Below are positions 8,026 to 60,768 of a stretch of 64,000 nucleotides of DNA, piece after piece. The translations under genes and the position numbers were made by a program. The notes under the pieces were generated by a model that saw only the letters and a program-made list of their open reading frames with translations, was not told where the DNA came from and searched no databases. The first letter of the stretch is position 1. Every line of letters starts with the position of its first letter. The stretch comes from Candidatus Bathyarchaeota archaeon (GTDB taxonomy: Archaea; Thermoproteota; Bathyarchaeia; Bathyarchaeales; Bathycorpusculaceae), in the NCBI GenBank assembly GCA_963717465.1, contig OY970340.1, forward strand, positions 320,001 through 384,000, read 5' to 3'.

Positions 8026-11001
8026 ATGAGATTCACACGGAAAAAGGAAAAAGAGCGCAAGAATCTCCTTATAAAAGGGAAGAAAAATATCGGGAAATTG
8101 TAAATGATGCGCCTATTGCAATTTTAGAAATTAGTTTTGACGGCTCAGAGCTCAGATACGCGAATTCCATCGTAAGCGAATTACTGCATTATTCAAAAGC
8201 AGAGCTTCTCTCAATAAATCCTTTAGAAGACATATTAGTTGAAGAAAGCAAAAAGGATTTCAAAAAAACCGTTAAAGAAGCACTGGCTGGTAAAAAAAAT
8301 CTTAACGCTGAGCTTAAAGTAAAAACAAAGGATGGAAAAACCTTTTGGGGACTATTTAATGCAAGAGTGATTTTTAAGAATAAGGAGCCTTATTCACTCT
8401 TAGTTTTTGCCCAAAATATAAATGAACTTAAAAAAACAGGAGAAGCTCTGCAATTATCAGAAGAAAAGTTTTCAAAGGCATTCAAATTCAGCCCAAATGC
8501 TGTAACACTAACTCGCCTAAGAGACGGCAAAATAATTGACACTAACGATTCAGCATTAAACATTTTAGGTTTTACTCCTCAGGAAGCAATCGGTCACACT
8601 ACGTTAGAGTTAGGGATTTGGAGTGATCCCAAGGACCGCGTAAGCTTGACTGAGGAGCTTTCCTCAAAGGGATTTGTTCTTGGCAGAGATTTTGTTTTAA
8701 AAAGGAAAGATGGAACTAAAATTACAGTAACCCTGTCGGCGTCGTCTCTTAAGATTCAGAATGAAGATTGCTTCTTGTCTTCATTTTTAGATGTGACTGA
8801 ACAAAAAAGGGCAGAGCAGAGACTTTGGCAAGCGAAGAATGATTGGGAACGTACCTTCGATGCGGTTCCAGATTTAATCATGATAATAGATTGTGAGCAT
8901 AGAATTGTTCGTGCTAACCGTTCAATGATTGGAAAAATAGGTGTTACGCCTCAACAAGTAGCAGGACTACCTTGTTATAATGCAGTTCATGATGCTAATT
9001 TACCTCCAACTTTCTGTCCTCATGCCAAGACAATCTGCGACGGCAAAGAACACGTTGCTGAAGTGCATGAGCCAAAACTCGGCGGCGATTTCGTAGTTAG
9101 CACTACCCCGCTCAAAGATGAAAATGGACGATTGATTGGTTCAGTACATGTAGCCCGAGACATCACTAAACGCAAAAAAATTGAAGAAGAACTTAAGAGC
9201 AGTGAAACTCGTTTTCGCTCGTTATATGAAAATAGTCTTGATGCTGTCATGCTGACTATTCCTAATGGCGCCATTCTCAGTGCTAATCCTGCGGCACAGC
9301 ACATGCTGGGCATGACTGAGGATGAAATTAAGAAGGCTGGTCGAAACGGCATTCTCGTTATGGACGACCGGGCGGCTGAGACTATTAAGGAGCGCGCAAA
9401 GGTTGGAAGAGCACAAGCGGAATTGACCTTGAGAAGGAAAGGTGGCTCCAAGTTTGAAGCAGAAGTGTCTTCAGGCTTGTTTACCGATGGTGATGGCGTA
9501 ACAAAAACAAGTATGATAATGAGAGACATAACTGAACGCAAAAAGGCGGAGGAAGTGATTAGGGAAAGAGAGCAGTTGTATAGAACTTTATTTGACAACA
9601 GCGATGATGGTTTTATCCTACTTGAGCCGTTTTACGACCAAAATGGTAAAGCATGTGATTTTAGGTTTTTGAAAGTTAACCCTGCATTTGAGCGTCAAAC
9701 TGGCTTAAGAGCTGAAGATGTCGAAGGCAAAAATGTAGGAAAAGCTGTGAGTGGTCTTGAGCTAGAGTTTTCTTCAATTGTTAAAAAAGTTGTTGAGACA
9801 GGTGAAGCTGCACGTTATGAAAGCTTTAATCAAGATAGGAGCAGGTTGTACGAGGGGCATTATTTCCCTTTTATAAGAGGAAGAGTTGGCGTTCTTTTCA
9901 GGGATATAACTGAGCGTAAGAAAGCTGAAGACAGCGCTAAAGCAAAGCGAGAAAAAATATCATCAGCTTTTTAATTCTATGACTGAAATGTTTATTGTTG
10001 CAGATTTGGTGCGCGATAAAAATGGGTTAGCAATCGACTTCGTTTATGTTGACGCTAACCTGGCATTTCTAAAAAACATCAAGAAAATAAGGAATGATGT
10101 TATAGGCAAAAGATTAGGAGAACTTTTTGAAATCAGCGGAGATTTTCGATTGGAGTTACTTAACAGAGTTGAAAAAACTGGGAAGCCGCATCGCTTCTTA
10201 GCTAAAAGCGAAATAGAAAATCGTCAATTTGAAGTTCTTGCCTGGAAAACTAGTAAAAATCAAGTAGGTTGCACGATTGAAGACATTAGTGAACGCAGAT
10301 TACTAGAAAAGCAGTTGCAAGATAAAGAACGCATGGCAGCTATTGGTGAAACTGCTGGAATGGTTGGACACGACTTACGTAATCCTTTGCAAACTATCGT
10401 CGGTGAGTTATATCTTGCAAAATCAGAATTAGATGAAATTCCTCAAGAAAATAGGAGAGAAATATTACAGGAGAGCATTGAAAGCATAGATACACAAGTC
10501 ACGTACATGGACAAAATAGTGAGCGACTTGCAAACCTTCGTTAAACCAGTGCAGACAAACAAGCAAAAAGTAAACTTAAATGAACTAATCGCATCAACTT
10601 TAACGCAGACCAGCATCCCTGAGAACATTCAAGCAACGACCAAACTCAAAGATAAACTAACTATCGATTCAGACCCTCAACTGCTAAGAAGAGTCTTAAT
10701 AAATCTCATCACAAACTCGATTCAAGCCATGCCAAAGGGTGGAGAATTAATAATAAATGCAAACGCTAGCAGTAAACGTCGAATGAAAATTGAAGTTGAG
10801 GACACCGGAGAAGGAATCCCTGAAGAGATCAAACCTAAAATTTTCACTCCATTGTTTACAACTAAATCAAGAGGCCAAGGTTTCGGTTTATCAGTGTGCA
10901 AAAGAGTGATTGAAGCTCAAGGAGGAACAATAAGTTTTATTAGCGAAGTTGGAAGAGGCACAAAATTCACAATAACATTACCATTAAAATCGTCTGGATA
11001 A
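8026..11001 (+). CDS. Multi-PAS sensor histidine kinase (frameshifts near 8075 and 9945)
   Basis: Repeated PAS/PAC units ending DITERKKAE; H-box VGHDLRNPL; HATPase N/G boxes; frame open upstream of the tracked ORF 8367, so the start is approximate. Confidence 0.88.
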
Positions 11002-11170
11002 AATCTGGATAAAAAACATGAGACTAAGTCTTTGATTTTGCCCTCAAAAGCTTAACCAAGAGGAATACTTCCTCGCAAAGTCGCTTAAGAAAATTACGTG
11101 GTCTTACTGAGCATATGCCGAAAAAAATTATTCTGGATTAAATTTAATCCAACCTTACCAAAATTATGGT

Positions 11171-11368
11171 TTATTCTTTCATTTCTTTGATTTTTTCTTC
11201 TACGGCTGCAAGTTCTTTTTTAAGTTCATTGGCATAATTCTTTAATTTCTCTATTTTTTCAGCCTTTGTAAAGAAGCGTCTTTTGTAACCCCCTTCGCGG
11301 AGAGGGAAGGGACGCCAGCCGCATGAATAGTTATGGTCCATGCCACGATCATAATAATCATCATCCAT
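11171..11368 (-). CDS. Small protein resembling DUF5320 family (Gly/Arg N-terminus plus coiled coil)
   Basis: RRFFTKAEKIEKLKNY..ELKKELAAVEEKIKEM; GAGGTGA ribosome-binding site upstream. Confidence 0.6.
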   Translation of the reverse strand: MDDDYYDRGMDHNYSCGWRPFPLREGGYKRRFFTKAEKIEKLKNYANELKKELAAVEEKIKEMKE

Positions 11369-11576
11369 ATTTTTTCACCTCACAAATTCATCATAAAAGT
11401 GGATATATAAAATGCGGGAGAATCACTCGGAAACTTCGAACTTAACACCGATAATGCACTTCTTAACGCGCAGTTTTAGTTCAGAGGAAAAGAGGAAAAA
11501 GTAGTTACTGTCGGCTTATAGTCACAAACGTAAAAATTCTCAATTGGCTTTCAACTGTAATTCGGAGGTGCAAAGT

Positions 11577-11783
11577 TTGAAATTAAGTGCCAGAAACCAG
11601 TTTAAAGGAAAAGTATTATCCGTTGACAAAGGCATAATAACAGCCAAAGTTAAAGTTGAAGTAAAAACGCCAGTTACCGTTACAGCGGTTATAACAAAAG
11701 AAGCTGTTGAAGACCTAGACGTAAAAGTTGGCGACGAGGTTAATGCAATAATGAAGTCAACCGAAGTCATGATAAGCAAATAA
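11577..11783 (+). CDS. TOBE/Mop molybdate-binding protein
   Basis: KLSARNQFKGKV..AVITKEAVEDL..GDEV.A.MKSTEV; GGAGGTG then TTG at 11577. Confidence 0.9.
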   Translation: MKLSARNQFKGKVLSVDKGIITAKVKVEVKTPVTVTAVITKEAVEDLDVKVGDEVNAIMKSTEVMISK

Positions 11784-12093
11784 CTAACTATTTTTTAGCC
11801 AATATACTTGTTTCAACCCGCGTTATCTCTAATTTAACGATAAAAAGCAAAACAGGCTTCAAATAGCAAGAAAGTTAACAGGCGTTTAAACTCAAAAAAA
11901 TGCTAAAATTCATGTTTTCTACACCCATGACCCAATTCGCGAAGTTTCCCTGAAACTTAAGCCAAACAACATTTTAGAAACCATGAGTTTTAAAGACTTT
12001 TTCTGAATTTCCAATAGTTATATGAGGGATATGTTTATATTGAAATCCATTGATATAACCGTACATTTCTAATTCGAAAAACACGTGGAAACG

Positions 12094-12147
12094 TTAATTC
12101 TGAAACTCTGGACATTTTATTAATAACGAAGGTAAGCTCTTTTGCAT
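12094..12147 (-). pseudogene. Truncated remnant of the zinc-ribbon gene at 17119-17319
   Basis: Reads MQKSLPSLLIKCPEFQN* versus VKEKLPSLLIKCREC in the intact copy, at the same position relative to the repeat. Confidence 0.65.
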
Positions 12148-12174
12148 AAAAGTCACTTCAGTAAATAAAAGTAG

Positions 12175-12376
12175 ATGTTAGTTGAATTGACCTTGTTTTA
12201 GTCCAAGCGAACACAAAAACTAGCAGGAGAGGGGGGACACTGGAACGCATTCCGCTTGGATTAAAAGTCAATTCAACCAACATTTTTTGTAAGCGATATA
12301 CAATATCAATTTAACATTATTTTTTATAAAAATATGTGACTGTCTTTAAACTACTACTTATGCTTGTTAGCTAAAT
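12175..12376. repeat. Composite repeat copy 1: long inverted repeat plus conserved linker
   Basis: Arms 12175-12211 and 12251-12283 pair (about 33 bp, 4-nt bulge, 39-nt loop), followed by AATATGTGACTG..AAACTACTACTTA. Confidence 0.85.
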
Positions 12377-12511
12377 TTGATTGAACTGATATTCTTTCTA
12401 CTCTTCAAATTCTTCACTATTTGGGTTTCTGAAGAGAGAGTAGCATAATAGTAATTGCGGTTGACAAGCGTAACTCGCAAAATAAAAAAGTCAGGGGTGT
12501 TTAAATAATAT

Positions 12512-12922
12512 ATGGAAGTTATGAAAAAAGGGTTTTCAACTTCTATGGAGGGAGAGACGCTCAAAAACACTGACTTCAGATGTGTCCTCTACACGGGAAA
12601 GTACAGTCAACTTGTCTTGATGTGTCTGCAACCAAACGAAGAAATTGGAATGGAAACACATGATTCAGTTGATCAATTCTTCAGATTCGAAAAAGGCGAA
12701 GGAAAAGTGGTCATTGATAAAACCGAGTACAAGGTCAAAGATGGCGATGCAGTAATTGTTCCATCAGGTGCACAGCACAATGTAATAAATACTTCAAAAA
12801 AGCGAAAACTAAAACTCTACACAATCTATTCGCCACCAGAACACGTAGACAAGACAATTCGACACACTAAAGCCGATGCAGAAGCTAAACCAGAAGAGTA
12901 CGATGGAAAGGCAACAGAATAG
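12512..12922 (+). CDS. Cupin-domain protein
   Basis: EEIGMETHDSVDQFFRFEKGEG, VIVPSGAQHNVIN, LYTIYSPPEH. Confidence 0.9.
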   Translation: MEVMKKGFSTSMEGETLKNTDFRCVLYTGKYSQLVLMCLQPNEEIGMETHDSVDQFFRFEKGEGKVVIDKTEYKVKDGDAVIVPSGAQHNVINTSKKRKLKLYTIYSPPEHVDKTIRHTKADAEAKPEEYDGKATE

Positions 12923-12981
12923 GCTCTTCTCACTTTTCTAGAAATAAGAAATAGTAGAACTGCTTACTTGTTCAATCCTTT

Positions 12982-13305
12982 TTAGTCCTCAATGTCTTTC
13001 ATTGTTTCTCTTAATGCCCCAAAGGTTTCCTGAACTGTTCGATTGTCAAGCATGTCTGTGTTCAAGTCTATCGCTTTATTATTTCTCAAAAAATTATCTG
13101 TTATGAAGTCAAGTACAACCCTAACAAAAAGCTTCCACAGTTTAGACATTTGCATATTGTAGATTTCATCATTTGTAAAACCTTCTTCACTTATTCTGCC
13201 TAACAATTCATTTCCTATATCGATTTCTAAGAAGCCTTGCTTTTTCGTTTCATCCAAGAACTCTCTGAAAGTCATATTATAAACGTTCTTGCTTGAACTA
13301 GACAT
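12982..13305 (-). CDS. Hypothetical protein, paralog of 43366-43689
   Basis: Shared MTF.EF.DE.KKQG.LE, EGFT.DE.YNM.MSKLWK, NKAI.LN.D.L.N.TV. Confidence 0.75.
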   Translation of the reverse strand: MSSSSKNVYNMTFREFLDETKKQGFLEIDIGNELLGRISEEGFTNDEIYNMQMSKLWKLFVRVVLDFITDNFLRNNKAIDLNTDMLDNRTVQETFGALRETMKDIED

Positions 13306-13385
13306 GTTATATTTGTTTGTTGGGTTGCTTTTTTAATAATTATTGCATGCCAAAATGGATGCACATTCTTAGATGAGCTTTCCAT

Positions 13386-15236
13386 TCACTTGGCAGGCAA
13401 ACGTAAGGTGAAAGTTGTCCCTTTACCCTCTTGACTATCAAAAGATACGGTGCCATTTAATGCTTCAGTCATACGCTTAACCACTGGCAAACCAAAACCT
13501 TGCCCCTTCGCTTTAGTCGTAAACATTGGTGTAAACAATTTATTCTTGATTTCTTTAGGAATACCAACACCTGTATCCTTAACACTTATAACAAAATAGT
13601 TTTCATCTTTGTAAGCGTGTATTGTCAGACTACCCCCATTGGGCATAGCTTGAACAGCATTATTCACTAAATTGTACATAATACGGTTAATGAAAGTAGA
13701 GTCGGCTACAATGCTCCGAGCGTCAGGTTCAACATTAATGCTGACTTTAATATTCTCAGGCGCACTTGTCTTTGATAGCAACTCTTCAATTATGCCTTTA
13801 ATGTCAGCTTTTTCAATAGAGGGGTTAAGTGGTTTAGAGTAGTCTTGAAGATCGGCTACAATTTTATTAATATAATCAATATTCCTCTCAATTTCCTGAA
13901 TGCTCTCCAAGGAATTCTTTTTCTGATCACTTTCCAAAGTTAATTCCAATTCTGATTTAAGCAAGTATAAATCACCAGTAATAGCCTGCAATGGATTACG
14001 TATATCATGACCTACCATGCCTGCAGTAGCACCAATAGCTGCTAAGCGCTCGGCATCTTTCAACTGCTTGGTGCGTTCATCAACAAGCCTTTCCAAGTGA
14101 TCACGGTATTTCTCAAGCTGCTCTTCAGTTTTCTTGCGTTCGGTAATATTTAGCACATACATACGTATGCGCTGAGCTTTTGGCACGTTGAAGCAGTGCT
14201 GAAGGTACCAGTCATCGCCGATTTTTACCTCACTAACAAAAGTGTTCGCGGTCTTCTCTCGAAATAATTTAACCATCCTTTTCCAGTCGGCAAACAATGG
14301 ATGCTTTAAACCCAATGCTTTAAGGTTAGCAAATTTGGCTTTTGCCGTAGGATTAGCATATTCGACTTTGCCCTCAAAATCTACTTCAATAACAGGGTTA
14401 GGGTTAAGTATTGGAAATGAAGCTAATCTTTTAACTTCTTCTTCAGCTTTCTTGCGTTCTGTAATGTTTCTTGTTATTCCTCGCCAACCCAGTAGTCTAC
14501 CTTTAGCATCAAAGAAGGGAACACCATTAATCTCAACAAAAATCAATCGTCCCTTACTATCATAAGATGGCACTTCTAAACCATTAAATGGCTTAGGATT
14601 ATCGTTCAATTTATTAAATAATAAAAGCATTTCTTCTTTTACTGAATCGGGCATTCTAATAAACACTGTCTTACCAATAATATTCTGAGGTTTAATTCCC
14701 CATAACTTTTCTATTTGAGGACTACAATAGGTAAAGAGTCCCTTATTATCCGCTTCCCAAATTAAGTCACTTGTAGTTTCGATTAAATCCTGATATTTCT
14801 CTTTACTTTCTTTGAGGGCTATTTCTGCTTTCTTGTCTTTTGTAATATCCTTGAATATTACTGCAAACCAGTTTTCCTCTTTTAGAGGTAGAACTGTTGC
14901 TCCAAGCCATTTATCCATACTTATTGAGTATGTCTCAAAACTGACAGCGTTTCCTGATTTAACAGCCTTTTCATAATTTGATAAGTACTCTTTACTTGCT
15001 AATTCAGGTGTGAACTCTGTTACTTTTTTGTCTAATACATTGCGTCTTGTTAAGTTTAATATTTGCTCAAAGAGTTTATTATAACCATGAAGGATGTAAT
15101 CGATGGCTTCTTCTTTATCATTAAAGGCAAGCTCACAGACCTGAACACCTTCACCTAAGGATTCTAAAAGTTTAAGGCAATTATCAAAACTATTTTGGAA
15201 GATATCTTTGATTTGTTTTTCTTCCATAAATCCCAA
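13386..15236 (-). CDS. PAS sensor histidine kinase
   Basis: PAS/PAC units, VGHDIRNPL, NLVNNAVQAM, DTGVGI, GQGFGL. Confidence 0.92.
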   Translation of the reverse strand: MGFMEEKQIKDIFQNSFDNCLKLLESLGEGVQVCELAFNDKEEAIDYILHGYNKLFEQILNLTRRNVLDKKVTEFTPELASKEYLSNYEKAVKSGNAVSFETYSISMDKWLGATVLPLKEENWFAVIFKDITKDKKAEIALKESKEKYQDLIETTSDLIWEADNKGLFTYCSPQIEKLWGIKPQNIIGKTVFIRMPDSVKEEMLLLFNKLNDNPKPFNGLEVPSYDSKGRLIFVEINGVPFFDAKGRLLGWRGITRNITERKKAEEEVKRLASFPILNPNPVIEVDFEGKVEYANPTAKAKFANLKALGLKHPLFADWKRMVKLFREKTANTFVSEVKIGDDWYLQHCFNVPKAQRIRMYVLNITERKKTEEQLEKYRDHLERLVDERTKQLKDAERLAAIGATAGMVGHDIRNPLQAITGDLYLLKSELELTLESDQKKNSLESIQEIERNIDYINKIVADLQDYSKPLNPSIEKADIKGIIEELLSKTSAPENIKVSINVEPDARSIVADSTFINRIMYNLVNNAVQAMPNGGSLTIHAYKDENYFVISVKDTGVGIPKEIKNKLFTPMFTTKAKGQGFGLPVVKRMTEALNGTVSFDSQEGKGTTFTLRLPAK

Positions 15237-15313
15237 TAATTAATTAATTCTGTTTAGGTATTTTATTTTTTAGGTTTAATCTAGTTAATATCTTTATAGA
15301 GCCACAAGTAGAG

Positions 15314-15500
15314 ATGGTTTGAATTGACCATGTTTTAATCCAAGAGAAAATAAAAATAAGTGGTAGAGAGGGAATGGAGATTTTTTCCGCTTGGACTAAA
15401 TGTTAATTCAACCAACATTTTTTTGTAAGGGATATGCATGATCATTTGTAACATTATTTTTTAATAAGAATATGTGACTGCCTTCAAACTACTACTTACT
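15314..15500. repeat. Composite repeat copy 2: hairpin plus linker
   Basis: TTGAATTGACCATGTTTTAATCCAAG..CGCTTGGACTAAATGTTAATTCAACCAACAT, then AATATGTGACTGCCTTCAAACTACTACTTA; colinear with copy 1. Confidence 0.85.
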
Positions 15501-15667
15501 ACCATAGCGCGCTTGCGGCTTTTCAAACTGAAGTTGCCATTAACATAAGCTAAAGCTCTAAAACTATCCCACTTAACCTCAAAAACCCAATCGTTGCTAC
15601 TAAAAATCCTAAGAGGAAGGTTTGGGTAACATTGGTTTATAAAAATGCATAATCGATCAGAAATTAT

Positions 15668-16147
15668 TCAACTGTGTGATTGCTCTTTTACTTCTATATT
15701 ATGTCTTGCAAGAGATCGGTAGGTAGCTGGTTCAATTCTTGAAACCAAAGGGTCTGCTATTCGATGAATAATTCTCCATTCTTCTTTTTCTTGTCTAAAG
15801 ATTGTTGTAGCCCTTAGAGCAATATGAACTATCTCACCTGTATCATCTATTTTAGCATCGAACTGCTCCACCTCTACAACATATCCCAAGTCTTGAGTTG
15901 AAAACTTCACAAGCCTATCCCAGCTTACGTTATATCCTGCTTGGAACCAAGAAGCACGTGAATTCAAGTGATGGATGACTTCTTTTAAACCCACTGAGAT
16001 ACCGCCTTGTGCTCCAAGCAATGAAACGTCCTTTTCGATGGAGAAGAGTTTATCGTAAGGTTCTGGGTTGCCCTTATAGAACTCTTTGACTGCAAGATGT
16101 GTCCTTTCAACCATTTGTTCAAAGTCAGGTATAACCAAATATATCAC
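15668..16147 (-). CDS. NTF2/SnoaL-like protein
   Basis: DLGYVVEVE..LRATTIFRQEKEEWRIIHRIADP. Confidence 0.8.
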   Translation of the reverse strand: MIYLVIPDFEQMVERTHLAVKEFYKGNPEPYDKLFSIEKDVSLLGAQGGISVGLKEVIHHLNSRASWFQAGYNVSWDRLVKFSTQDLGYVVEVEQFDAKIDDTGEIVHIALRATTIFRQEKEEWRIIHRIADPLVSRIEPATYRSLARHNIEVKEQSHS

Positions 16148-54103: not shown

Positions 54104-54499
54104 ATTAAGCATCCAATCTTAAAGTTTCCTTATTTTTTAATTTTTAGTTTTAACTCGTGTCTGATTTTACGTAGAGGCAACTTTGAGTGAGAATGATGAG
54201 GGAACTCCTGAAGACTTGTTGGTAGTTAAGCCTGCTACTTCTTCGGTTTGGTCTTTTTTTGGACCTTAAAGCTCAACGAGAATGCCGAGAAAGACATTTT
54301 GCCATACCCGTAGATGATCTGGAAAATCTCGGAAAACCCACGAATAGCATGGAAAATTCGTAAATCCTTAGTTCAAATGAGCTGAAAAAAGTGCAAAATG
54401 AGCTGAATGGTATTTAGAAAGCGCAAAATTTCTTGAATTCTGGGAAAATTTTAACTATTTACCAATACTGTTTTAGTTGTTTGTATATACTGTTTTTGT

Positions 54500-54723
54500 A
54501 TGTCAGATGTTGTTACTGTCAGAGTTGAGAAGTTGCTGAAGGAGAAAATAAAAAAGCACAAGATAAACGTGAGCAAGGTTGTTCGGGATGCCCTTGAAGA
54601 AGAGGTAAAGAAGCAGGAAGATGCTAACTGCTGCAGGCCATTGGTGAGGTGAAAACTATTCTGCAGAAAATTCCGAACGATGAAATTGTGAAAGCCGTAA
54701 GAGAATCAAGAGATCAAAGATGA
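54500..54723 (+). pseudogene. VapB/CcdA-like antitoxin (frameshift near 54626)
   Basis: MSDVVTVRV..KINVSKVVRDALEEEVK..EIVKAVRESRDQR. Confidence 0.7.
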
Positions 54724-55141
54724 AAAAATACCTGTTTGACGCCAGTGCACTCATGCTGCTGATAAAAGAGGCAGATGCAAATACTACTGCGAGTTAACTG
54801 CAAGATTCCAATGTCCTCGACTTAACTTTTTATGAGGTTGGAAACGCAATCTGGAAGGAAAGCGCACTAACAAAAATGTTGACAGAAGAGGATTCAAAAA
54901 GAATGCAAAAAACATTCAAACAATCCTTATGAAAACTGACCGCATAACAAGTGAACCTGACACTTTTGAGAGAATCCTTGAAATCGCACAAACAGAAAAA
55001 CTCGCATTCTACGATTCAAGCTACATCCATCATGCAAAAGAAAAAGAACTCCAACTCATAACAGAAGACCAACAACTCAAAACAAAAACCCAAAATTACA
55101 CCAACGCTCAAACCCTAACCGAACTGCTAACCCAAAAGTAA
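54720..55141 (+). pseudogene. VapC/PIN toxin, interrupted
   Basis: YLFDASAL, YEVGNAIWK, FYDSSY, LITED; in-frame TAA near 54795 plus a frameshift. Confidence 0.75.
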
Positions 55142-55414
55142 ACAGAAGCAACGATGCAATGGCTAAACTTAACCTAAAAATCATGAAAGTGCTAGAGAAA
55201 TTACAGTTACATTAACAGTCTGAATTATCATCGCATCACAAAAGCTGACCTATGAATTTGATTTGCTTGATTGCTTTAAAAAAATCATCTTTTGAATAGG
55301 TCTCTTCTCTTATTGTAGATTAAAGGGAAGGTGGAAAAACGATTGATTTAAAGCATGAGTAGCGATGGTTATCAAAAGAAAAAAAACTATGCTGATTATG
55401 TACTATAATTCGCG

Positions 55415-56152
55415 TTATGCATGTAAGAGCGCACCAATAATTCCGAAACCAACACCAAATACACCGAAAATAATCACGAGGAGCAAATCCCTCCACTTAT
55501 CAACATATTCTCTTGTCGAATCAACATCATGCTTCGTAGCGAAATCAGCTGATGTTAAGGCAAATCCGGGATTCATATTGAAAGACAAGTTTTTCTGCGC
55601 ATCCGCTATGCTAAATTGAGGTTTTTCATGGAACTTGCTGTATTTTTCTTCAATTTTGTTTGTTTTGCCAACGACAAAATATAGACACCCTTCATGCCGC
55701 CCAATCTTTATTGGTTGATTAGTCATATTAAGTAATGTAGCTGTTAAATGCCCGTGAAAACCAGGATCAACATGCCCCAAAGTAAAAAAGTGGAGGCCTA
55801 AATTAGAAAATCGTGGATTCATAAAAAGCGAGCCGTCGATATCGAATGGCATGTTTATGCATTCTCTTGTCGTGAAGAAGACAAATTTTCCAGGTGGGAT
55901 TATTATTGCGTTTTCAGTGAGCTCCTCTCTAGCTAATTTTCCTATTACATCACCAACATGTAGAATCATAGCATTTCCTTCAAAATTCTTATCGTCAGCA
56001 ATTTCTGTTGGTTTGACGTCCCCCGTTGGGTCGTAAACAAGTCTATTCAAGTTTCCTTTATGTTCTGGGACTTTGCAAATCCCAGTATAATTATCGCAAC
56101 TCCAGCCTTTAATAATTAAATCTTGCATCTCGCCTTGAGTTAAATCCGACAA
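55415..56152 (-). CDS. dCTP deaminase/dUTPase-fold protein with C-terminal transmembrane helix
   Basis: IIPPGKFVFFTTRECINMP, GHVDPGFHGHLT..LLN; tail LLLVIIFGVFGVGFGIIGALL. Confidence 0.8.
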   Translation of the reverse strand: MSDLTQGEMQDLIIKGWSCDNYTGICKVPEHKGNLNRLVYDPTGDVKPTEIADDKNFEGNAMILHVGDVIGKLAREELTENAIIIPPGKFVFFTTRECINMPFDIDGSLFMNPRFSNLGLHFFTLGHVDPGFHGHLTATLLNMTNQPIKIGRHEGCLYFVVGKTNKIEEKYSKFHEKPQFSIADAQKNLSFNMNPGFALTSADFATKHDVDSTREYVDKWRDLLLVIIFGVFGVGFGIIGALLHA

Positions 56153-56537
56153 TAAATCACTTCCTTCGAATCATCTTAATGGTATCAGACTTATCAATTT
56201 TTTGTATTCTAATGATTTAGTGCGAAGTTATTAACATGGTGAATGTGGCCAAATATCCACGGCAATCTTTTTGGTCTACCAATATGTACAATAAATCGAT
56301 CTCGAAAGGCGCTGATAGCAATGCGTTTAATAGAAACTCATCCTGAAAAGTTAAAAAGGCGAAAACTACAGAAATAATTGCCCAACAAAAAGGAATGGAA
56401 ATTAAGTGGTCTTGAAATGGGAAGCAAGCAAATCAATGAAATATCTATAGAGCTTAGTGTAATAAGGATAAATCTCATGGATAAACATTGGATTAAAGTA
56501 ATTACGGATAAAGAATCTGCAAAAATGAGGGTAATAA

Positions 56538-56957
56538 ATGAGCAATGAGGCTTCGAGCAATAATGTTTCTACTACAGATATGAGACTTTGGCAAAAGCTC
56601 GCTGGAAAAGCGTGGGCTTGCAGGAAATATGCTCGTGTTCTAGGAAATACCAAAGTCGGCGCTGCTGTACTTTCTGATGGAAAAATTTTTACTGGGTGCA
56701 ACATTGAACATCAATTCCACAGTCATGACATTCATGCCGAAGTAACTGCGATAAGTAACATGATATCTAACAATCACAAGAGGTTACAAGCGATCGTAAT
56801 TGTTGCTGAGAGACAAAGGTTTACGCCTTGCGGGGCTTGCATGGATTGGATTATCGAATTTGGCGGAGGCAAATGCTTGGTAGGAAATCAGTCCGCCCAA
56901 AACAGCGAAATCAACATTTATCGGGCAAATGAGCTAATGCCTTATTATCCGAAGTAA
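56538..56957 (+). CDS. Cytidine deaminase-family protein
   Basis: VGAAV..GCNIE, HAE, PCGAC zinc motifs. Confidence 0.9.
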   Translation: MSNEASSNNVSTTDMRLWQKLAGKAWACRKYARVLGNTKVGAAVLSDGKIFTGCNIEHQFHSHDIHAEVTAISNMISNNHKRLQAIVIVAERQRFTPCGACMDWIIEFGGGKCLVGNQSAQNSEINIYRANELMPYYPK

Positions 56958-57224
56958 AGAAACTATCCTCAATTCTTTAGGCGGGTCTATTGGCAACGCA
57001 TCCTTATTAGTTTTAAACTTTTTTCTCACTGAATTTAGATTTTCACAAACTTCCGCTGGAATTACATCATCTGATGCTTTTGAGGCTTAATTTCTGTTAA
57101 CTTATCATAAGATTAATGGAGTATATATTAATGGTCAGAGATAAGTTACAGAAGGGATTTGGGGCTTTCACATCTTTTTGACGCGCAATCCTTTAATAAT
57201 AATTCACACAATCAATTGAAAATA

Positions 57225-58031
57225 ATGACAGAGATAGCTTTCGATAATGTTGCTCATGAGTTAGGTGTAACACGTGCCTTCTTTGATAGAATCGTCAAAG
57301 ATGGGAAAGAAATTCCATTTCACAGGTCTGGGGCGAGAAATGTTGTTTACAGAACTGACCTGGATAATTATGAAACTATGAAAGAGTCACGAAAAGTCTT
57401 TCTTGGGAAAGACGTTTTTCTTAAAGCTTTGAAATTCGCCTTGGAGATAAATCTTCACGGTCATACAAGAGCAGATTTCGGTACAAAAAGGCAACGTCCC
57501 TTCATGCAAGCTGTGGAGAATTGGACACAGGGAGCACTTGCTGAATTAGCCTTACAAAAATTTATACAAGACAAATACAATCTTGAACTACAAGTTGAGT
57601 TTCGTGTTTTCGATGATGCAATAGTTGGTCAGGACATTGTTGCTGTAAAAAGAAACAAAGTGATAAATCCACCGAGAAAAAAAGTAAGCGTCAAGAGCGG
57701 CAAAACTAATGGCATGTGTTTGTTAGTTCCTACCAATGAAGTTGAAAGTAGCCAAAGATTTTCTGAGTACTATGTTTTTGTAAGAGTAGATTTTCCTGTA
57801 GACACCTTCGTAAGGTTTTATCGTGATGCCCCAGAATTTAGCGACTTTAAAGACAAGATAAGCCCCTTTGAGAATGCGATTGCATATATAGCTGGTTACT
57901 GTGAAAGGACTAACCTTTCCAAAAGAACTGTTCCTGAAATAGGTTTAGCTGATGAAGAGAGGTATGTTCAAATAGTAGGAAACTTGAAAAATCAAGATAG
58001 TGATTGGCAAAATTTTGTCAATGACCTCTAA
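57225..58031 (+). CDS. Excisionase-like HTH fused to a putative PD-(D/E)xK endonuclease
   Basis: VAHELGVTRAFFDRIV..IPFHRSG; QGALAELALQKF..QDI..VSVKS..YYVFVRV. Confidence 0.55.
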   Translation: MTEIAFDNVAHELGVTRAFFDRIVKDGKEIPFHRSGARNVVYRTDLDNYETMKESRKVFLGKDVFLKALKFALEINLHGHTRADFGTKRQRPFMQAVENWTQGALAELALQKFIQDKYNLELQVEFRVFDDAIVGQDIVAVKRNKVINPPRKKVSVKSGKTNGMCLLVPTNEVESSQRFSEYYVFVRVDFPVDTFVRFYRDAPEFSDFKDKISPFENAIAYIAGYCERTNLSKRTVPEIGLADEERYVQIVGNLKNQDSDWQNFVNDL

Positions 58032-58450
58032 TTAAGTTTAGAGGTCTTTCCAGCTGTTGCTTTAAGAATTCTGCTGATACAGTAACTTAACCTGTGCTTC
58101 ACATCATATTCCCAAATACGTATCACAGTCCATCCTTGCTTCTTCAACTGTCGATTAACCATGCGGTCTCTTTTCTTGTTCCCTGAAATTTTCTTATCCC
58201 AATATTCAACGTTAGTTTTAGGTCTAACAAAACGTTTAGAATTACCATGCCAAAAATCAGAATCAATGAAGATAGCAAGTTTTTTCTCGGAAAAAACAAT
58301 ATCGGGCTTACCCATAATTGCTTTATCATAGACAGTGAAAACTAAGCCTTTTTTTCGCAATTCATTTATCATTATGTTTTCAGCTTTTGTGCCTGTAGAG
58401 CGTATCCTTTGCATGTTCTTTCTACGTTGTTCAGGTGTAAGATTATCCAT
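58028..58450 (-). CDS. vsr: Very short patch repair endonuclease
   Basis: MDNLTPEQRRKNMQRIRS, GKPDI, FIDSDFWHG, GWTVIRIWE. Confidence 0.95.
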   Translation of the reverse strand: MDNLTPEQRRKNMQRIRSTGTKAENIMINELRKKGLVFTVYDKAIMGKPDIVFSEKKLAIFIDSDFWHGNSKRFVRPKTNVEYWDKKISGNKKRDRMVNRQLKKQGWTVIRIWEYDVKHRLSYCISRILKATAGKTSKLN

Positions 58451-58453
58451 TTA

Positions 58454-59443
58454 CTATCTCTTAACAGAAGGCTTAGAAAAATCCATGTAATAAGTTTCAT
58501 TATCAATTTTGTAAAAGACAACATCAGTGCGGCCATATCGTTCTAAATCTTCTTTCTTAACCAGTGCCCCTAATAGTACTTCGAGCCGTTTCCTGAAATA
58601 TATGCCAATAATGCTGTTATTATGAGGTGTATGTATGGCTTTACCATTTTGTTGTGCTCTGGTACAGATCATAACTTTATCATTATCAGTGTAAACAGTA
58701 AAATGTACTTCGACGTCAGGGAAAAAGTCAGTATTATAAACGCTTGAAGGTAACCTTATGTATGCTTGATTAGGCTCTCTGCCCTCTTCAGGTCTCTGCC
58801 CCCAATTTAACCCAGAACGTTTTGGTAACTCGCCATATCTATCAAGCAAAGAGACACGTTCAAATGGCAATCCTTCTAAGACCACACCTTTAGGAACTGC
58901 GGAGGGCTTATCTTCTACGAGTAGTCTCTGCTTGATTAGCCGCCGATAAGTTTGGTCTTCATAAATTGTAACAAGGTTTTCAGCGTCTTGATGATTGCAG
59001 TAAATTGATTCACTGCTCATATTTTCAAAATAATCATTTGCTTCTTTAAGCGGGCATTCAGTCATTAATTCTCTTTGATTACTAAAAGCAGTTTGAGTAT
59101 AGTTTGCTGAACCAGCAAAGGCTATTATCGGTTTTTCATCTTTGAGCCAGATATACATTTTTGAATGCACTGGCGGGCAATTTACGATGTAACTGCAAGT
59201 AAATACATCATTAAACTCATCCATTAATTGCTGAAAACCTCGATGATTGCTTTTAGATAACCCGTCTTGAGAACTCATGCCTAAAATTAATTGTACTTGA
59301 ACGTTTGGGTTTATACTTTTCAATGTATTTAGATGATGAAAAGCCATAGCGGCTGTCGCATAACCAGAGACTATGAGAAGTTTGTTGCAGCCTTTTTGTG
59401 CTGGTTCAATAAGTATTTTGTTAAATAAGTCGTCAATAATCAT
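58454..59443 (-). CDS. NgoFVII-like PLD-family restriction endonuclease
   Basis: IVSGYAT, VHSKMYIW..GSANYT (HxK), SGLNWGQ; lies between dcm and vsr. Confidence 0.82.
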   Translation of the reverse strand: MIIDDLFNKILIEPAQKGCNKLLIVSGYATAAMAFHHLNTLKSINPNVQVQLILGMSSQDGLSKSNHRGFQQLMDEFNDVFTCSYIVNCPPVHSKMYIWLKDEKPIIAFAGSANYTQTAFSNQRELMTECPLKEANDYFENMSSESIYCNHQDAENLVTIYEDQTYRRLIKQRLLVEDKPSAVPKGVVLEGLPFERVSLLDRYGELPKRSGLNWGQRPEEGREPNQAYIRLPSSVYNTDFFPDVEVHFTVYTDNDKVMICTRAQQNGKAIHTPHNNSIIGIYFRKRLEVLLGALVKKEDLERYGRTDVVFYKIDNETYYMDFSKPSVKR

Positions 59444-59467
59444 GTTCGCTATGTCAGTTTGAATTAT

Positions 59468-60571
59468 TTATAAAGTTATCTGTTGCAGTTGTAGCGGTTT
59501 CGATTGCGTAATATTTTGTAAAATTGGTGAAATGTTGGGTTCAACAGATTTATACTCTATTTCAGCAAAAGTTTTCAGAATTGCTTCGAAGACTACTTGA
59601 GCACCTTTCGGCGGGACTGCCATGCCGATCTGACGTCTGACACTTTCTTTAGATCCGCTGAAAGAAAACCAGTCGGGAAATGTTTGTAATCTTGCTCTTT
59701 CTCTATTAGTTAATGCTCTGTTTTCTTTCCAATGATACATATGTGTTCCACCGCCACCGCTTCCCGTAACAGTGTATGCGGGTTTCTTTGGATCTAACCG
59801 TTTGTATAGTTGACTTATTTTGGCACCGTTGACCTTAAGTCTTAGATGTTCAGGTAAATTGGCTGTGAAAACGTTTTCGCCTGCTTTAATATACTGTAAT
59901 CGTTCAATGACATGCTTTGCCTGCTTGGTTAACTCTTGGTTTTTTGCATCGGAAGGTATCGGCGGGTTTTTTAACGCTGTCTTGCATGTTACTGGTGTAT
60001 TGTTTATCGGAGCCGGAACTTTAAAGATTAGAGATAGATCTCTTCTTATCCCAACAATTATTATTCGATGCCGTGATTGTGGAACGTTGTAATACTCAAA
60101 CTTATAGAGGTTAGGTACAATATTGTATCCTGCATCAGCCATTTCTTGCAGGATGACTTTTAGTGCTTTTCCGTCATTTGCATTTCTTAATCCAGCTACG
60201 TTTTCAGCAAGAAACCATTTAGGCTGAAAGTGTTTTAGCGCTTTAATACAGTACTCATAAAGCTGTCCATAAATGCCGTTGAAACCTTTTTTCTCGCCAA
60301 CATCGCTGAAATCGTTGCAGGGAAAACCGAAGGCGAGAGCATCAGCTGAAGGAAGCTGATTCATATCAAGGTCTGCTACATCACAGCAAATTACACTATT
60401 GCTACTAATGTTTTTGCGGTATGTGTTGCAGGCATCTTCGTCATAATCATTCGCCCAAACTGGATTTATGGAAAAATCGGTTGAGCCTTCGGTGACCTTG
60501 GCTGATATTGCGCCGAGGGCTAATCCACCTGCGCCGTTAAATAATTCGCCTAGTCTGAAGCTCATGGTCAC
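59468..60571 (-). CDS. dcm: DNA (cytosine-5)-methyltransferase
   Basis: FNGAGG, GFPCNDFS, AENVAG, QSRHR, RERARLQTFPD, QIGMAVP. Confidence 0.96.
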   Translation of the reverse strand: MTMSFRLGELFNGAGGLALGAISAKVTEGSTDFSINPVWANDYDEDACNTYRKNISSNSVICCDVADLDMNQLPSADALAFGFPCNDFSDVGEKKGFNGIYGQLYEYCIKALKHFQPKWFLAENVAGLRNANDGKALKVILQEMADAGYNIVPNLYKFEYYNVPQSRHRIIIVGIRRDLSLIFKVPAPINNTPVTCKTALKNPPIPSDAKNQELTKQAKHVIERLQYIKAGENVFTANLPEHLRLKVNGAKISQLYKRLDPKKPAYTVTGSGGGGTHMYHWKENRALTNRERARLQTFPDWFSFSGSKESVRRQIGMAVPPKGAQVVFEAILKTFAEIEYKSVEPNISPILQNITQSKPLQLQQITL

Positions 60572-60768
60572 CGTATCCCCTTTGTACGTAACTCTTATTT
60601 AAACCTAAGTTAGAATCTGATGTTGAGATCTGAATTTTACCGAATATCCCATTCTTGCGACTATTTCTGCAGGCTAAATTTTACTAAATTCGTAAAAAAT
60701 AATATAAAAATCGGAAAATTTAAATATTATATCTTCATTTATCTTCCCAAACGTGAGGAATCCAGAAT

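Follow-up and report, generated by a model that had tools for sequence, protein, structure and literature searches.

The jelly-roll fold shared by deoxycytidine triphosphate (dCTP) deaminases (Dcd) and deoxyuridine triphosphatases (dUTPases) has been solved for Dcd of E. coli (1xs1), for the bifunctional Dcd-dUTPases of M. tuberculosis (4a6a/2qlp) and M. jannaschii (1pkh), and for archaeal Dcd-like dUTPases such as Thermococcus P45 (9ln0/9ln3/8y1w). In trimeric dUTPases, the aspartate of the third motif is catalytic. Here we describe Dcd-TM, a protein of this fold with a predicted C-terminal transmembrane (TM) anchor, and the cytidine deaminase (Cdd) encoded next to it, in a stretch of 64,000 bp from a Candidatus Bathyarchaeota archaeon (assembly GCA_963717465.1, contig OY970340.1, positions 320,001 to 384,000), hereafter the window. 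Judged from sequence, Dcd-TM belongs to a broad and as yet unnamed clade of membrane-anchored, Dcd-like proteins that lack the catalytic glutamate of the deaminases. Our favoured reading, offered tentatively and with somewhat less than even confidence, is that Dcd-TM is a membrane-anchored trimeric hydrolase or binder of pyrimidine deoxynucleotides, which works with an enzyme that consumes deoxynucleoside monophosphates (dNMPs) or nucleosides and is tied to 5-methylcytosine (5mC) systems.

Three described systems offer points of comparison beyond the fold itself. The phage T4 dCTPase-dUTPase (gp56) is coupled to a dCMP deaminase and thymidylate synthase, and one locus of the clade (L116) similarly has consecutive genes for a Dcd-like protein, ThyX, and a protein with a deaminase domain; unlike Dcd-TM, the T4 enzymes are not membrane-anchored, and viral contigs and cultured phages yielded no close Dcd-TM relatives. 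Human DCTPP1 acts on 5-methyl-dCTP, and human CDA turns 5-methyldeoxycytidine (5-methyl-dC) into thymidine; with human MBD4, E. coli YjjG, Dcm-Vsr, and M.MthTI-Mig.MthI, they make up a comparator set for pool sanitation and 5mC damage control. This set shares the logic that we propose here (hydrolysis of C5-modified dCTP, deamination of the nucleoside, repair of T:G), and there is a likeness in gene neighbours, namely a C5 DNA methyltransferase, Vsr, a MutY/Nth-like glycosylase, and a YjjG-like HAD protein. DCTPP1 is soluble and has the MazG fold, whereas Dcd-TM is membrane-anchored, has the dUTPase fold, and has 5-methyl-dCTP only as a putative substrate. The third system, Kongming, comprises KomA, a deaminase, KomB, a non-canonical NTP pyrophosphatase, and KomC, a SIR2 protein. 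KomB is reported to have a non-canonical NTP pyrophosphatase fold, and the system to have a SIR2 effector and to be activated by dITP (PMC13454610, 10.1101/2024.12.20.629578). As in Kongming, a deaminase in the window, encoded in a defence-type island, adjoins a nucleotide-sanitising fold whose catalysis is altered; unlike Kongming, the island has neither SIR2 or another effector nor a HAM1 fold, its theme is pyrimidine rather than purine, and the pairing with a deaminase is absent from the close family of Dcd-TM.

The Dcd-TM gene (55415–56152, minus strand) starts at a TTG codon and encodes 245 amino acids, beginning with MSDLT as its relatives do. The protein matches Pfam PF22769 (DCD) with 40.2 bits (cut-off 27, E 4.6e-10) and PHROG 1663, 'dCTP deaminase', with E 2.7e-16. 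Computed from 24 family sequences, its AlphaFold2 model (mean pLDDT 87.6) ends in a helix (residues 207–244) that follows a low-confidence linker (residues 198–205). The top Foldseek matches of the model were bifunctional Dcd-dUTPases and archaeal dUTPases (E 6e-10 to 4e-9, the best being 4a6a at 6e-10; 9ln3 gave a target TM-score of 0.73), and the jelly-roll Dcd/dUTPase fold is thus indicated by both the Pfam family and the structural match to a Dcd-dUTPase. The Dcd and Dcd-dUTPase enzymes are the best matches in sequence and structure, with the same fold and the same DPGFxG hairpin. Yet the equivalog model for dCTP deaminases (TIGR02274) gives 54.7 bits against a cut-off of 92.8. As for the trimeric dUTPase models, there is no match to PF00692 at E <=0.01, and TIGR00576 yields 15.7 bits, below its cut-off of 102.55.

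The residues on which a deaminase depends are gone. HMMER alignment places GKSSLGRLGL of the solved Dcd and Dcd-dUTPase enzymes over MNPRFSNLGL of Dcd-TM (residues 111–120; 55793–55822, minus strand), a remodelled phosphate-binding motif that stands in place of the Dcd motif GRSSxxRxGL and in which Ser, Ser, and Arg are replaced by Pro, Arg, and Asn. The second motif, DPGFSGHITLEL in the solved enzymes, aligns with DPGFHGHLTATL, and within GHVDPGFHGHLTATLLN (residues 126–142; 55727–55777, minus strand) Asp129 is kept and Thr139 occupies the position of the catalytic Glu. Dcd-TM therefore has neither the catalytic Glu nor the GRSSxxRxG motif of a dCTP deaminase, and Glu is found at the catalytic column in 0 of the 24 sequences of the close-family alignment (Dcd-TM and 23 homologues). 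The third-motif Asp of the trimeric dUTPases is present as Asp129 and kept in 21 of the 24. On this point the initial annotation, which described a Dcd/dUTPase fold with Ser, Arg, and Glu lost and Asp kept, is borne out by PF22769 and the HMMER alignments. Dcd-TM is neither an ordinary Dcd nor an ordinary dUTPase. We had considered NPGFALT in the C-terminal arm as a remnant of dUTPase motif V, a candidate that was dropped on finding that the Dcd-type enzymes native to the class to which the archaeon belongs end in YxGxYQ.

Beyond these losses, Dcd-TM differs from the Dcd and Dcd-dUTPase enzymes in what has been added: an N-terminal Cys/Cys/His motif, a longer C-terminal arm, and a TM helix. 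The first of these, W17-C19-C26-H31 (56060–56104, minus strand), occupies invariant columns in the close family, is missing from the distant relatives L092, L094, and L095, and may bind a metal. S116, N117, G119, H127, and H175 are likewise invariant among the 24 sequences. The predicted TM segment spans residues 223–241 (55430–55486, minus strand; Kyte-Doolittle mean 2.64) and is followed by a tail of 4 residues. Each of the 24 aligned relatives has a segment at Kyte-Doolittle >=1.95, which the class-native enzymes lack; the hydrophobic C-terminal helix reported earlier is therefore genuine, and the possibility that it is a frameshift artefact is ruled out by the same 24 relatives.

Dcd-TM was also predicted as a homotrimer. 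The ipSAE was 0.73, against 0.00 for the best control, a mark that 20 of 30 solved pairs reached, as did 1 of 23 single chains; trimers of this fold have been solved, so that the pass may reflect memory. The runs agreed in at least 86% of contacts, with partner pLDDT of at least 77. In the predicted trimer, active-site elements lie at the subunit interfaces, D129/P130 contacting N60/A61 of the adjacent subunit, and the three C-terminal helices bundle together. We take the three-copy prediction as a likeness to solved trimers rather than as proof of a trimer.

A word-indexed search recovered 50 Dcd-TM homologues at 40–72% identity, all from metagenomes except the window's own and one of them labelled Methanoperedens, and an exhaustive profile search recovered 9 representatives at E <=1e-30, 253 at 1e-10, and 4,182 at 1e-3. 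Among the best 150 representatives, 135 have the DxG hairpin motif. Of these, 131 are without Glu, and in 110 of the 131 the core is followed by a hydrophobic 19-mer; such a segment is missing from the 4 that have Glu, which show the canonical RSS motif. The fetched loci show the identical split, Glu without TM versus TM without Glu, and it is because the split holds in both collections that we assign Dcd-TM to a wide clade. In the ESM Atlas the only matches were 'dCTP deaminase family' clusters of 213–279 aa, mostly bacterial. The passages retrieved by full-text literature searches describe no Glu-less or membrane-anchored Dcd-like family and no link of one to a C5 methyltransferase, and the family appears to be undescribed. 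A viral origin was considered and rejected for both proteins, neither of which has a relative in viral contigs; among cultured phages and plasmids, only core-level matches of 25–39% identity were found, to ordinary Dcd or 'hypothetical protein'. One clade member on a plasmid of Agrobacterium rubi (L162; NZ_CP049209.1, 16740–20318), a 308-aa 'hypothetical protein', overlaps a class I SAM methyltransferase gene and is followed by a homologue of adenylosuccinate synthetase, making another nucleotide-modifying trio.

Loss of Glu need not mean loss of catalysis. The archaeal Dcd-like dUTPases (Thermococcus P45 and the class-native enzymes of L021–L049) have Ser, Ala, or Thr in its place and retain the Asp, and since they lack the deaminase Glu, Glu-less relatives of Dcd can be hydrolases. 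The class-native enzymes are of about 130–180 aa. At most of the 29 loci a small residue (Ser, Ala, or another) stands where the Glu would be, and three loci (L023, L030, and L049) have a Glu-bearing enzyme; known archaeal dUTPases are the basis on which we infer that the class-native enzymes are dUTPases. RSS, FLQ, and YxGxYQ are intact in these enzymes, which lack a TM segment; in the membrane-anchored Dcd-TM, each of the three motifs is altered.

The distribution of Dcd-TM is that of an accessory gene. In the 3.05-Mb genome (completeness 88%), the only PF22769 match and the only PF00145 (C5 methyltransferase) match both lie in the island described below; searches of the genome for trimeric (PF00692) and dimeric (PF08761) dUTPases found none, nor is there a canonical Dcd, and a single MazG-family gene is present (C1:696469-696651). 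Dcd-TM as query gave 0 matches in 39 same-genus genomes, with no Dcd-type hit at all, and found no close relative among 400 genomes of the class, where the next best match (E 2e-10, 31% identity) covered the core only. The lost motifs, the 0 of 39 same-genus genomes, and the location in an inserted island rule out a housekeeping Dcd or dUTPase, a possibility the initial annotation had named as one that would overturn its reading.

The island occupies the 6,665-bp (6.67-kb) gap between the genes for L24e and DapA (54104–60768). The window is archaeal, with TFB and the ribosomal proteins L7Ae, S28e, and L24e encoded directly upstream, and in 6 of 6 same-genus loci the L24e-DapA spacing is an island-free 567–602 bp (a seventh fetched locus was excluded because a contig end cut it). 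No tRNA was found at the island, and its ends have only short, imperfect repeats, none of them convincing as flanking repeats. Its genes are, in order, an RHH antitoxin open reading frame (ORF), a PIN pseudogene, Dcd-TM, Cdd, a 290-aa restriction endonuclease-like protein, Vsr, an NgoFVII-type restriction endonuclease, and a C5 methyltransferase. The last three, mutually adjacent, make a type II restriction-modification (RM) locus with very-short-patch repair, for which PADLOC calls MTase_II, REase_II, and Vsr: the C5 cytosine DNA methyltransferase (59468–60571, minus strand; PF00145, 257 bits), the restriction endonuclease with PLD and B3-like domains (58454–59443, minus strand; PF09565, 145.5 bits; PF20731, 121.6 bits), and the Vsr T:G mismatch endonuclease (58028–58450, minus strand; PF03852, 78.1 bits). 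The island is a horizontally acquired 5mC RM island with Dcd-TM and Cdd as cargo, and the defence-type setting proposed at the outset is thereby upheld.

Dcd-TM and Cdd (56538–56957, plus strand) are divergent, with 385 bp from start to start (56153–56537), between the decayed vapBC-like pair and the RM locus; coordinates and Pfam and PADLOC matches confirm the arrangement first noted. Of the vapBC-like pair (54500–55141), which is half decayed, the antitoxin remains open (VapB/CcdA-like, 50 aa; 54500–54652, plus strand; Pfam CcdA, E 2.8e-5; RHH_1, E 0.0055), and the VapC-like PIN gene (54684–55141, plus strand) is split by an in-frame stop after 54797 and, as judged from stop-to-stop frames, a frameshift between 54836 and 54932, its last piece still matching Pfam PIN (E 8.7e-4). 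On the other side, the 290-aa protein (57159–58031, plus strand) combines an N-terminal, excisionase-like helix-turn-helix (HTH; TIGR01764 excise domain, E 2e-4) with a region like a type II restriction endonuclease (PADLOC PDLC03411 REase_II, E 8.3e-14); a Pfam scan of it gave no match, and its role may be that of a second nuclease or of an RM-locus controller. Its ORF and the 3' end of vsr, on opposite strands, overlap by 4 bp.

The neighbours of Dcd-TM homologues were tallied within 5 kb at non-redundant loci with Pfam and tblastn, 22 close-homologue metagenome loci reducing to 19. In this close family, 12 loci have a HAD gene, 3 a deoxyribosyltransferase-like gene, 1 thyX, and 0 a CDA-fold deaminase (any such partner, 15); 10 have a C5 methyltransferase, 11 a MutY/Nth-like HhH-GPD glycosylase, and 1 Vsr (any 5mC marker, 13). 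At 25 distant Glu-less loci the corresponding counts are 5 HAD, 0 deoxyribosyltransferase-like, 5 ThyX, and 5 CDA-fold (any partner, 14), and 1 C5 methyltransferase, 0 glycosylases, and 3 Vsr (any marker, 3). The 27 loci of canonical, Glu-bearing Dcd scored 0 in every class. A recurrent order in the close family (L070 and L072–L076) is HhH-GPD glycosylase, Dcd-TM, HAD phosphatase, and C5 methyltransferase, with genes that often overlap; in L072 and L074, Dcd-TM, HAD, and methyltransferase overlap or abut. The Dcd-TM proteins at these loci are 39–83% alike, and because they adjoin three HAD lineages (<=25% identity) and at least six C5 methyltransferase lineages (25–38%), their partners seem to have been recruited repeatedly and independently. 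One HAD lineage scores best on models of YjjG-type noncanonical pyrimidine nucleotidases, below their cut-offs, and another passes an archaeal phosphoserine-phosphatase-like model; the glycosylases, which are MutY/Nth-like without a C-terminal domain, score best on MutY and Nth models, also below cut-offs.

Cdd itself is a 139-aa protein of the PF00383 family (58.3 bits). Its zinc-binding motifs, H66-A67-E68 (56733–56741) and P97-C98-G99-A100-C101 (56826–56840), are intact, as the initial annotation held, and have the (H/C)AE and PCxxC form of cytidine deaminases. It aligns with solved cytidine deaminases of the tetrameric type, including the GCNIE(N/H) stretch, and scores just below NF004064 (71.4 bits, cut-off 74) and well below TIGR01354 (65.5, cut-off 113.65). 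It is the genome's only Cdd-type gene and one of two PF00383 matches. The nearest relative found (L094, 57% identity) lies directly downstream of a gene for a 287-aa, Glu-less Dcd-like protein. Among 400 genomes of the phylum, the sole match at E <=1e-18 (G667, 54% identity) is the last gene of an operon with a C5 methyltransferase and an 821-aa AAA (AAA_5-like) protein (L159, G667:C1:1328500-1346500, 8720–15725), which is adjoined by a pair of PRTase-CE and ORC-CDC6-like genes. The ORC-CDC6-like family (PF24389) of this locus occurs near Dcd-TM homologues too (L076 and L084). These contexts tie the Cdd clade to C5 methylation independently of Dcd-TM, and what Cdd and Dcd-TM have as their common denominator in the window is the methyltransferase, not one another.

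What was observed is the fold, the loss of residues, the conservation of the TM anchor, the island, and the neighbour counts; from these we infer the substrate, catalysis as such, the order of steps, and a purpose in 5mC metabolism, as follows. A cytoplasmic trimer, tethered by its three-helix bundle, would bind a cytosine- or uracil-type deoxynucleotide in the pocket between subunits and most likely hydrolyse it towards the monophosphate, by dUTPase-type chemistry with the retained Asp129. The product would be consumed by a second enzyme, which among the relatives would be a HAD nucleotidase, a deoxyribosyltransferase or Rcl-like enzyme, ThyX, or a dCMP deaminase, and in the window Cdd, converting (5-methyl)deoxycytidine to thymidine or deoxyuridine. 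The module would thus provide pool hygiene, clearing the 5-methyl-dC (and/or dU) nucleotides that come about in cells with 5mC in their DNA, as a nucleotide-level counterpart of Vsr. We propose pool hygiene because, in the close family, the module is found together with C5 DNA methyltransferases and enzymes of T:G repair, an association that suggests 5-methyl-dC nucleotides as its cargo there. Every recurrent partner of the Glu-less clade consumes a pyrimidine dNMP or nucleoside, and for that reason a metabolic route fits better than a signal generator with a sensor.

Several points weigh against this reading. Asp129 is substituted in 3 of the 24 sequences (Ala in P0037, His in P0041 and P0046), and the class-native RSS, FLQ, and YxGxYQ have become NPRxSN, CLY(F/L)V, and FHxxPQ in Dcd-TM; because phosphate-binding residues are changed, its ligand may be other than a triphosphate, or it may be a non-catalytic binder. 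The membrane anchor is without explanation in a pool-cleaning role and is strictly coupled to Glu loss. A phosphatase, HAD or other, that could connect a dNMP product to a nucleoside deaminase such as Cdd is missing from the island. The 5mC link belongs mainly to the close family (13/19 versus 3/25 in distant loci). As for the tally, its queries were drawn from the same loci that were tallied, many neighbour contigs are shorter than 3 kb, and the zeros of the canonical control, mostly candidate-phyla bacteria, are partly an effect of sensitivity or kinship. Finally, a C5 methyltransferase is present in 23 of 60 same-genus genomes, and none of those searched has Dcd-TM or an island-type Cdd. 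C5 methylation does not require the Dcd-TM/Cdd module, and the two genes are, for that reason, optional extras.

The fallback offered by the initial annotation, dCTP depletion or dUTP clean-up, comes close to the best-supported reading. Depletion as an anti-phage device, in which Dcd-TM as a dCTP/dUTP pyrophosphatase and a product-destroying partner (HAD, Rcl-like enzyme, deaminase, or Cdd) would drain the deoxycytidine pool and starve phage replication, with the anchor serving activation or restraint, we consider unlikely. dCTP-depleting deaminases do defend against phage, all partner types consume pyrimidine dNMPs or nucleosides, and Dcd-TM is accessory and sporadic. The clade's surroundings are also rich in defence-island genes, among them RM, AIPR, Schlafen AlbA_2, HerA-NurA, HATPase_c_3, ORC-CDC6-like with PRTase-CE, and an HTH-Peptidase_M78 regulator. 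The deaminase of one distant locus (L121) has a domain in common with the anti-phage dCTP deaminase model of NCBIfam, on which it scores 80 bits against a cut-off of 400. However, NF041025 is not among the NCBIfam matches of Dcd-TM or Cdd, and neither protein matches any PADLOC (2023) family at E <=0.01. One of the partners, ThyX, builds dTMP instead of destroying nucleotides; translationally coupled operons of C5 methyltransferase and T:G glycosylase have no role in depletion; the window shows no evident sensor or regulator; and the phosphate site is remodelled.

Some further contexts of the clade are worth recording for themselves. At four loci (L116, 1162–5011; L109, L114, and L115), Dcd-like TM genes are coupled to thyX with overlapping stop and start codons; further downstream in L116 is a gene for a 529-aa protein with a dCMP/cytidine-deaminase domain, and in L109 an archaeo-eukaryotic primase-like gene lies nearby. 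Another conserved operon surrounds distant Glu-less Dcd-like TM genes in L008, L098, L101, and L103 (also L096 and L100), in the order HTH protein, DUF4186, Dcd-like TM protein, a weak radical-SAM match, and a 420–440-aa protein without assignment; the HTH protein has a Peptidase_M78 match in L008, L098, and L096, and the operon has the look of a regulated mobile or defence module. Beside the Dcd-TM homologue of L082 (8769–11203) are a Vsr gene, which is on the opposite strand, a C5 methyltransferase, a second, partial C5 methyltransferase-like stretch, and a HATPase_c_3 protein.

That the two genes have no joint function, and that a Cdd of ordinary salvage and a Dcd-TM of some unrelated role at the membrane are simply co-carried on one mobile island, strikes us as improbable. 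They are divergent and not co-transcribed, they do not co-occur in the close family, and Cdd at 31–43% identity is found in 50 of 100 genomes of the taxonomic family, as befits a common salvage gene. Against this, the nearest Cdd relatives found adjoin a Dcd-like TM gene (57% identity) or belong to a C5 methyltransferase operon (54%), and a search of 60 same-genus genomes gave no Cdd save for one fragment at E 9e-4 with six stops. CDA-fold neighbours, moreover, occur at 5 of 25 distant Glu-less loci (L005, L093, L094, L116, and L121) and at 0 of 27 canonical Dcd loci. In L005 and L093 the deaminase is divergent from the Dcd-like gene, as in the window, and L121, with a Dcd-like TM protein, a deaminase, Vsr, and a C5 methyltransferase, echoes the window's logic. 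The co-occurrence with a deaminase that the initial annotation proposed to check is not a conserved one: it is seen at a fifth of the distant loci and at none of the close family (0/19).

Very doubtful is the reading with which the analysis began, Kongming-like signalling, in which the deaminase makes uracil nucleotides, the altered Dcd fold senses dUTP or dUMP, and the TM bundle damages the membrane in abortive infection. Catalytic and phosphate residues lost around a conserved base and sugar pocket do give Dcd-TM the look of a sensor pseudo-enzyme; its TM segment is coupled to Glu loss across the clade; and CDA-fold deaminases accompany 5 of 25 distant Glu-less members as well as Dcd-TM, twice in divergent orientation. 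Yet no close-family locus has a deaminase, and the commonest partners (HAD, ThyX, and deoxyribosyltransferase-like proteins) would remove a uracil-nucleotide signal, not make it. Cdd, as a CDA-type nucleoside deaminase, would not produce dUTP directly, and its clade also stands with a C5 methyltransferase where no Dcd-like gene is present. Nor is there a separate effector domain: the island's Pfam and PADLOC matches include no dedicated effector (SIR2 or similar), and each chain has one TM helix, with a tail of 0–11 residues in most members. With the pairing absent from the close family and no effector beyond a single helix, pyrimidine signalling of this kind is not supported.

Phages make C5-modified deoxycytidine nucleotides that render their DNA restriction-proof. 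It is conceivable, and in our judgement highly improbable, that the clade and its partners are an accessory arm of 5mC restriction, which would destroy phage 5-methyl- or 5-hydroxymethyl-dCTP and so restore restriction, or whose trimer would sense these nucleotides at the membrane and abort infection; immunity would then be aimed at the modified-nucleotide pool and not at DNA.

Whatever its function, a large uncharacterised clade is now delimited, with 253 representatives at E <=1e-10, whose members databases label 'dCTP deaminase' despite the missing deaminase residues and whose reproducible operon partners make its function directly testable. If our favoured reading of Dcd-TM as part of a pool-hygiene module is correct, cytosine-methylating prokaryotes would carry a nucleotide-level clean-up beside DNA-level repair by Vsr and Mig-type glycosylases, a functional counterpart of the animal DCTPP1/CDA/MBD4 set that would have a different fold and a membrane tether.

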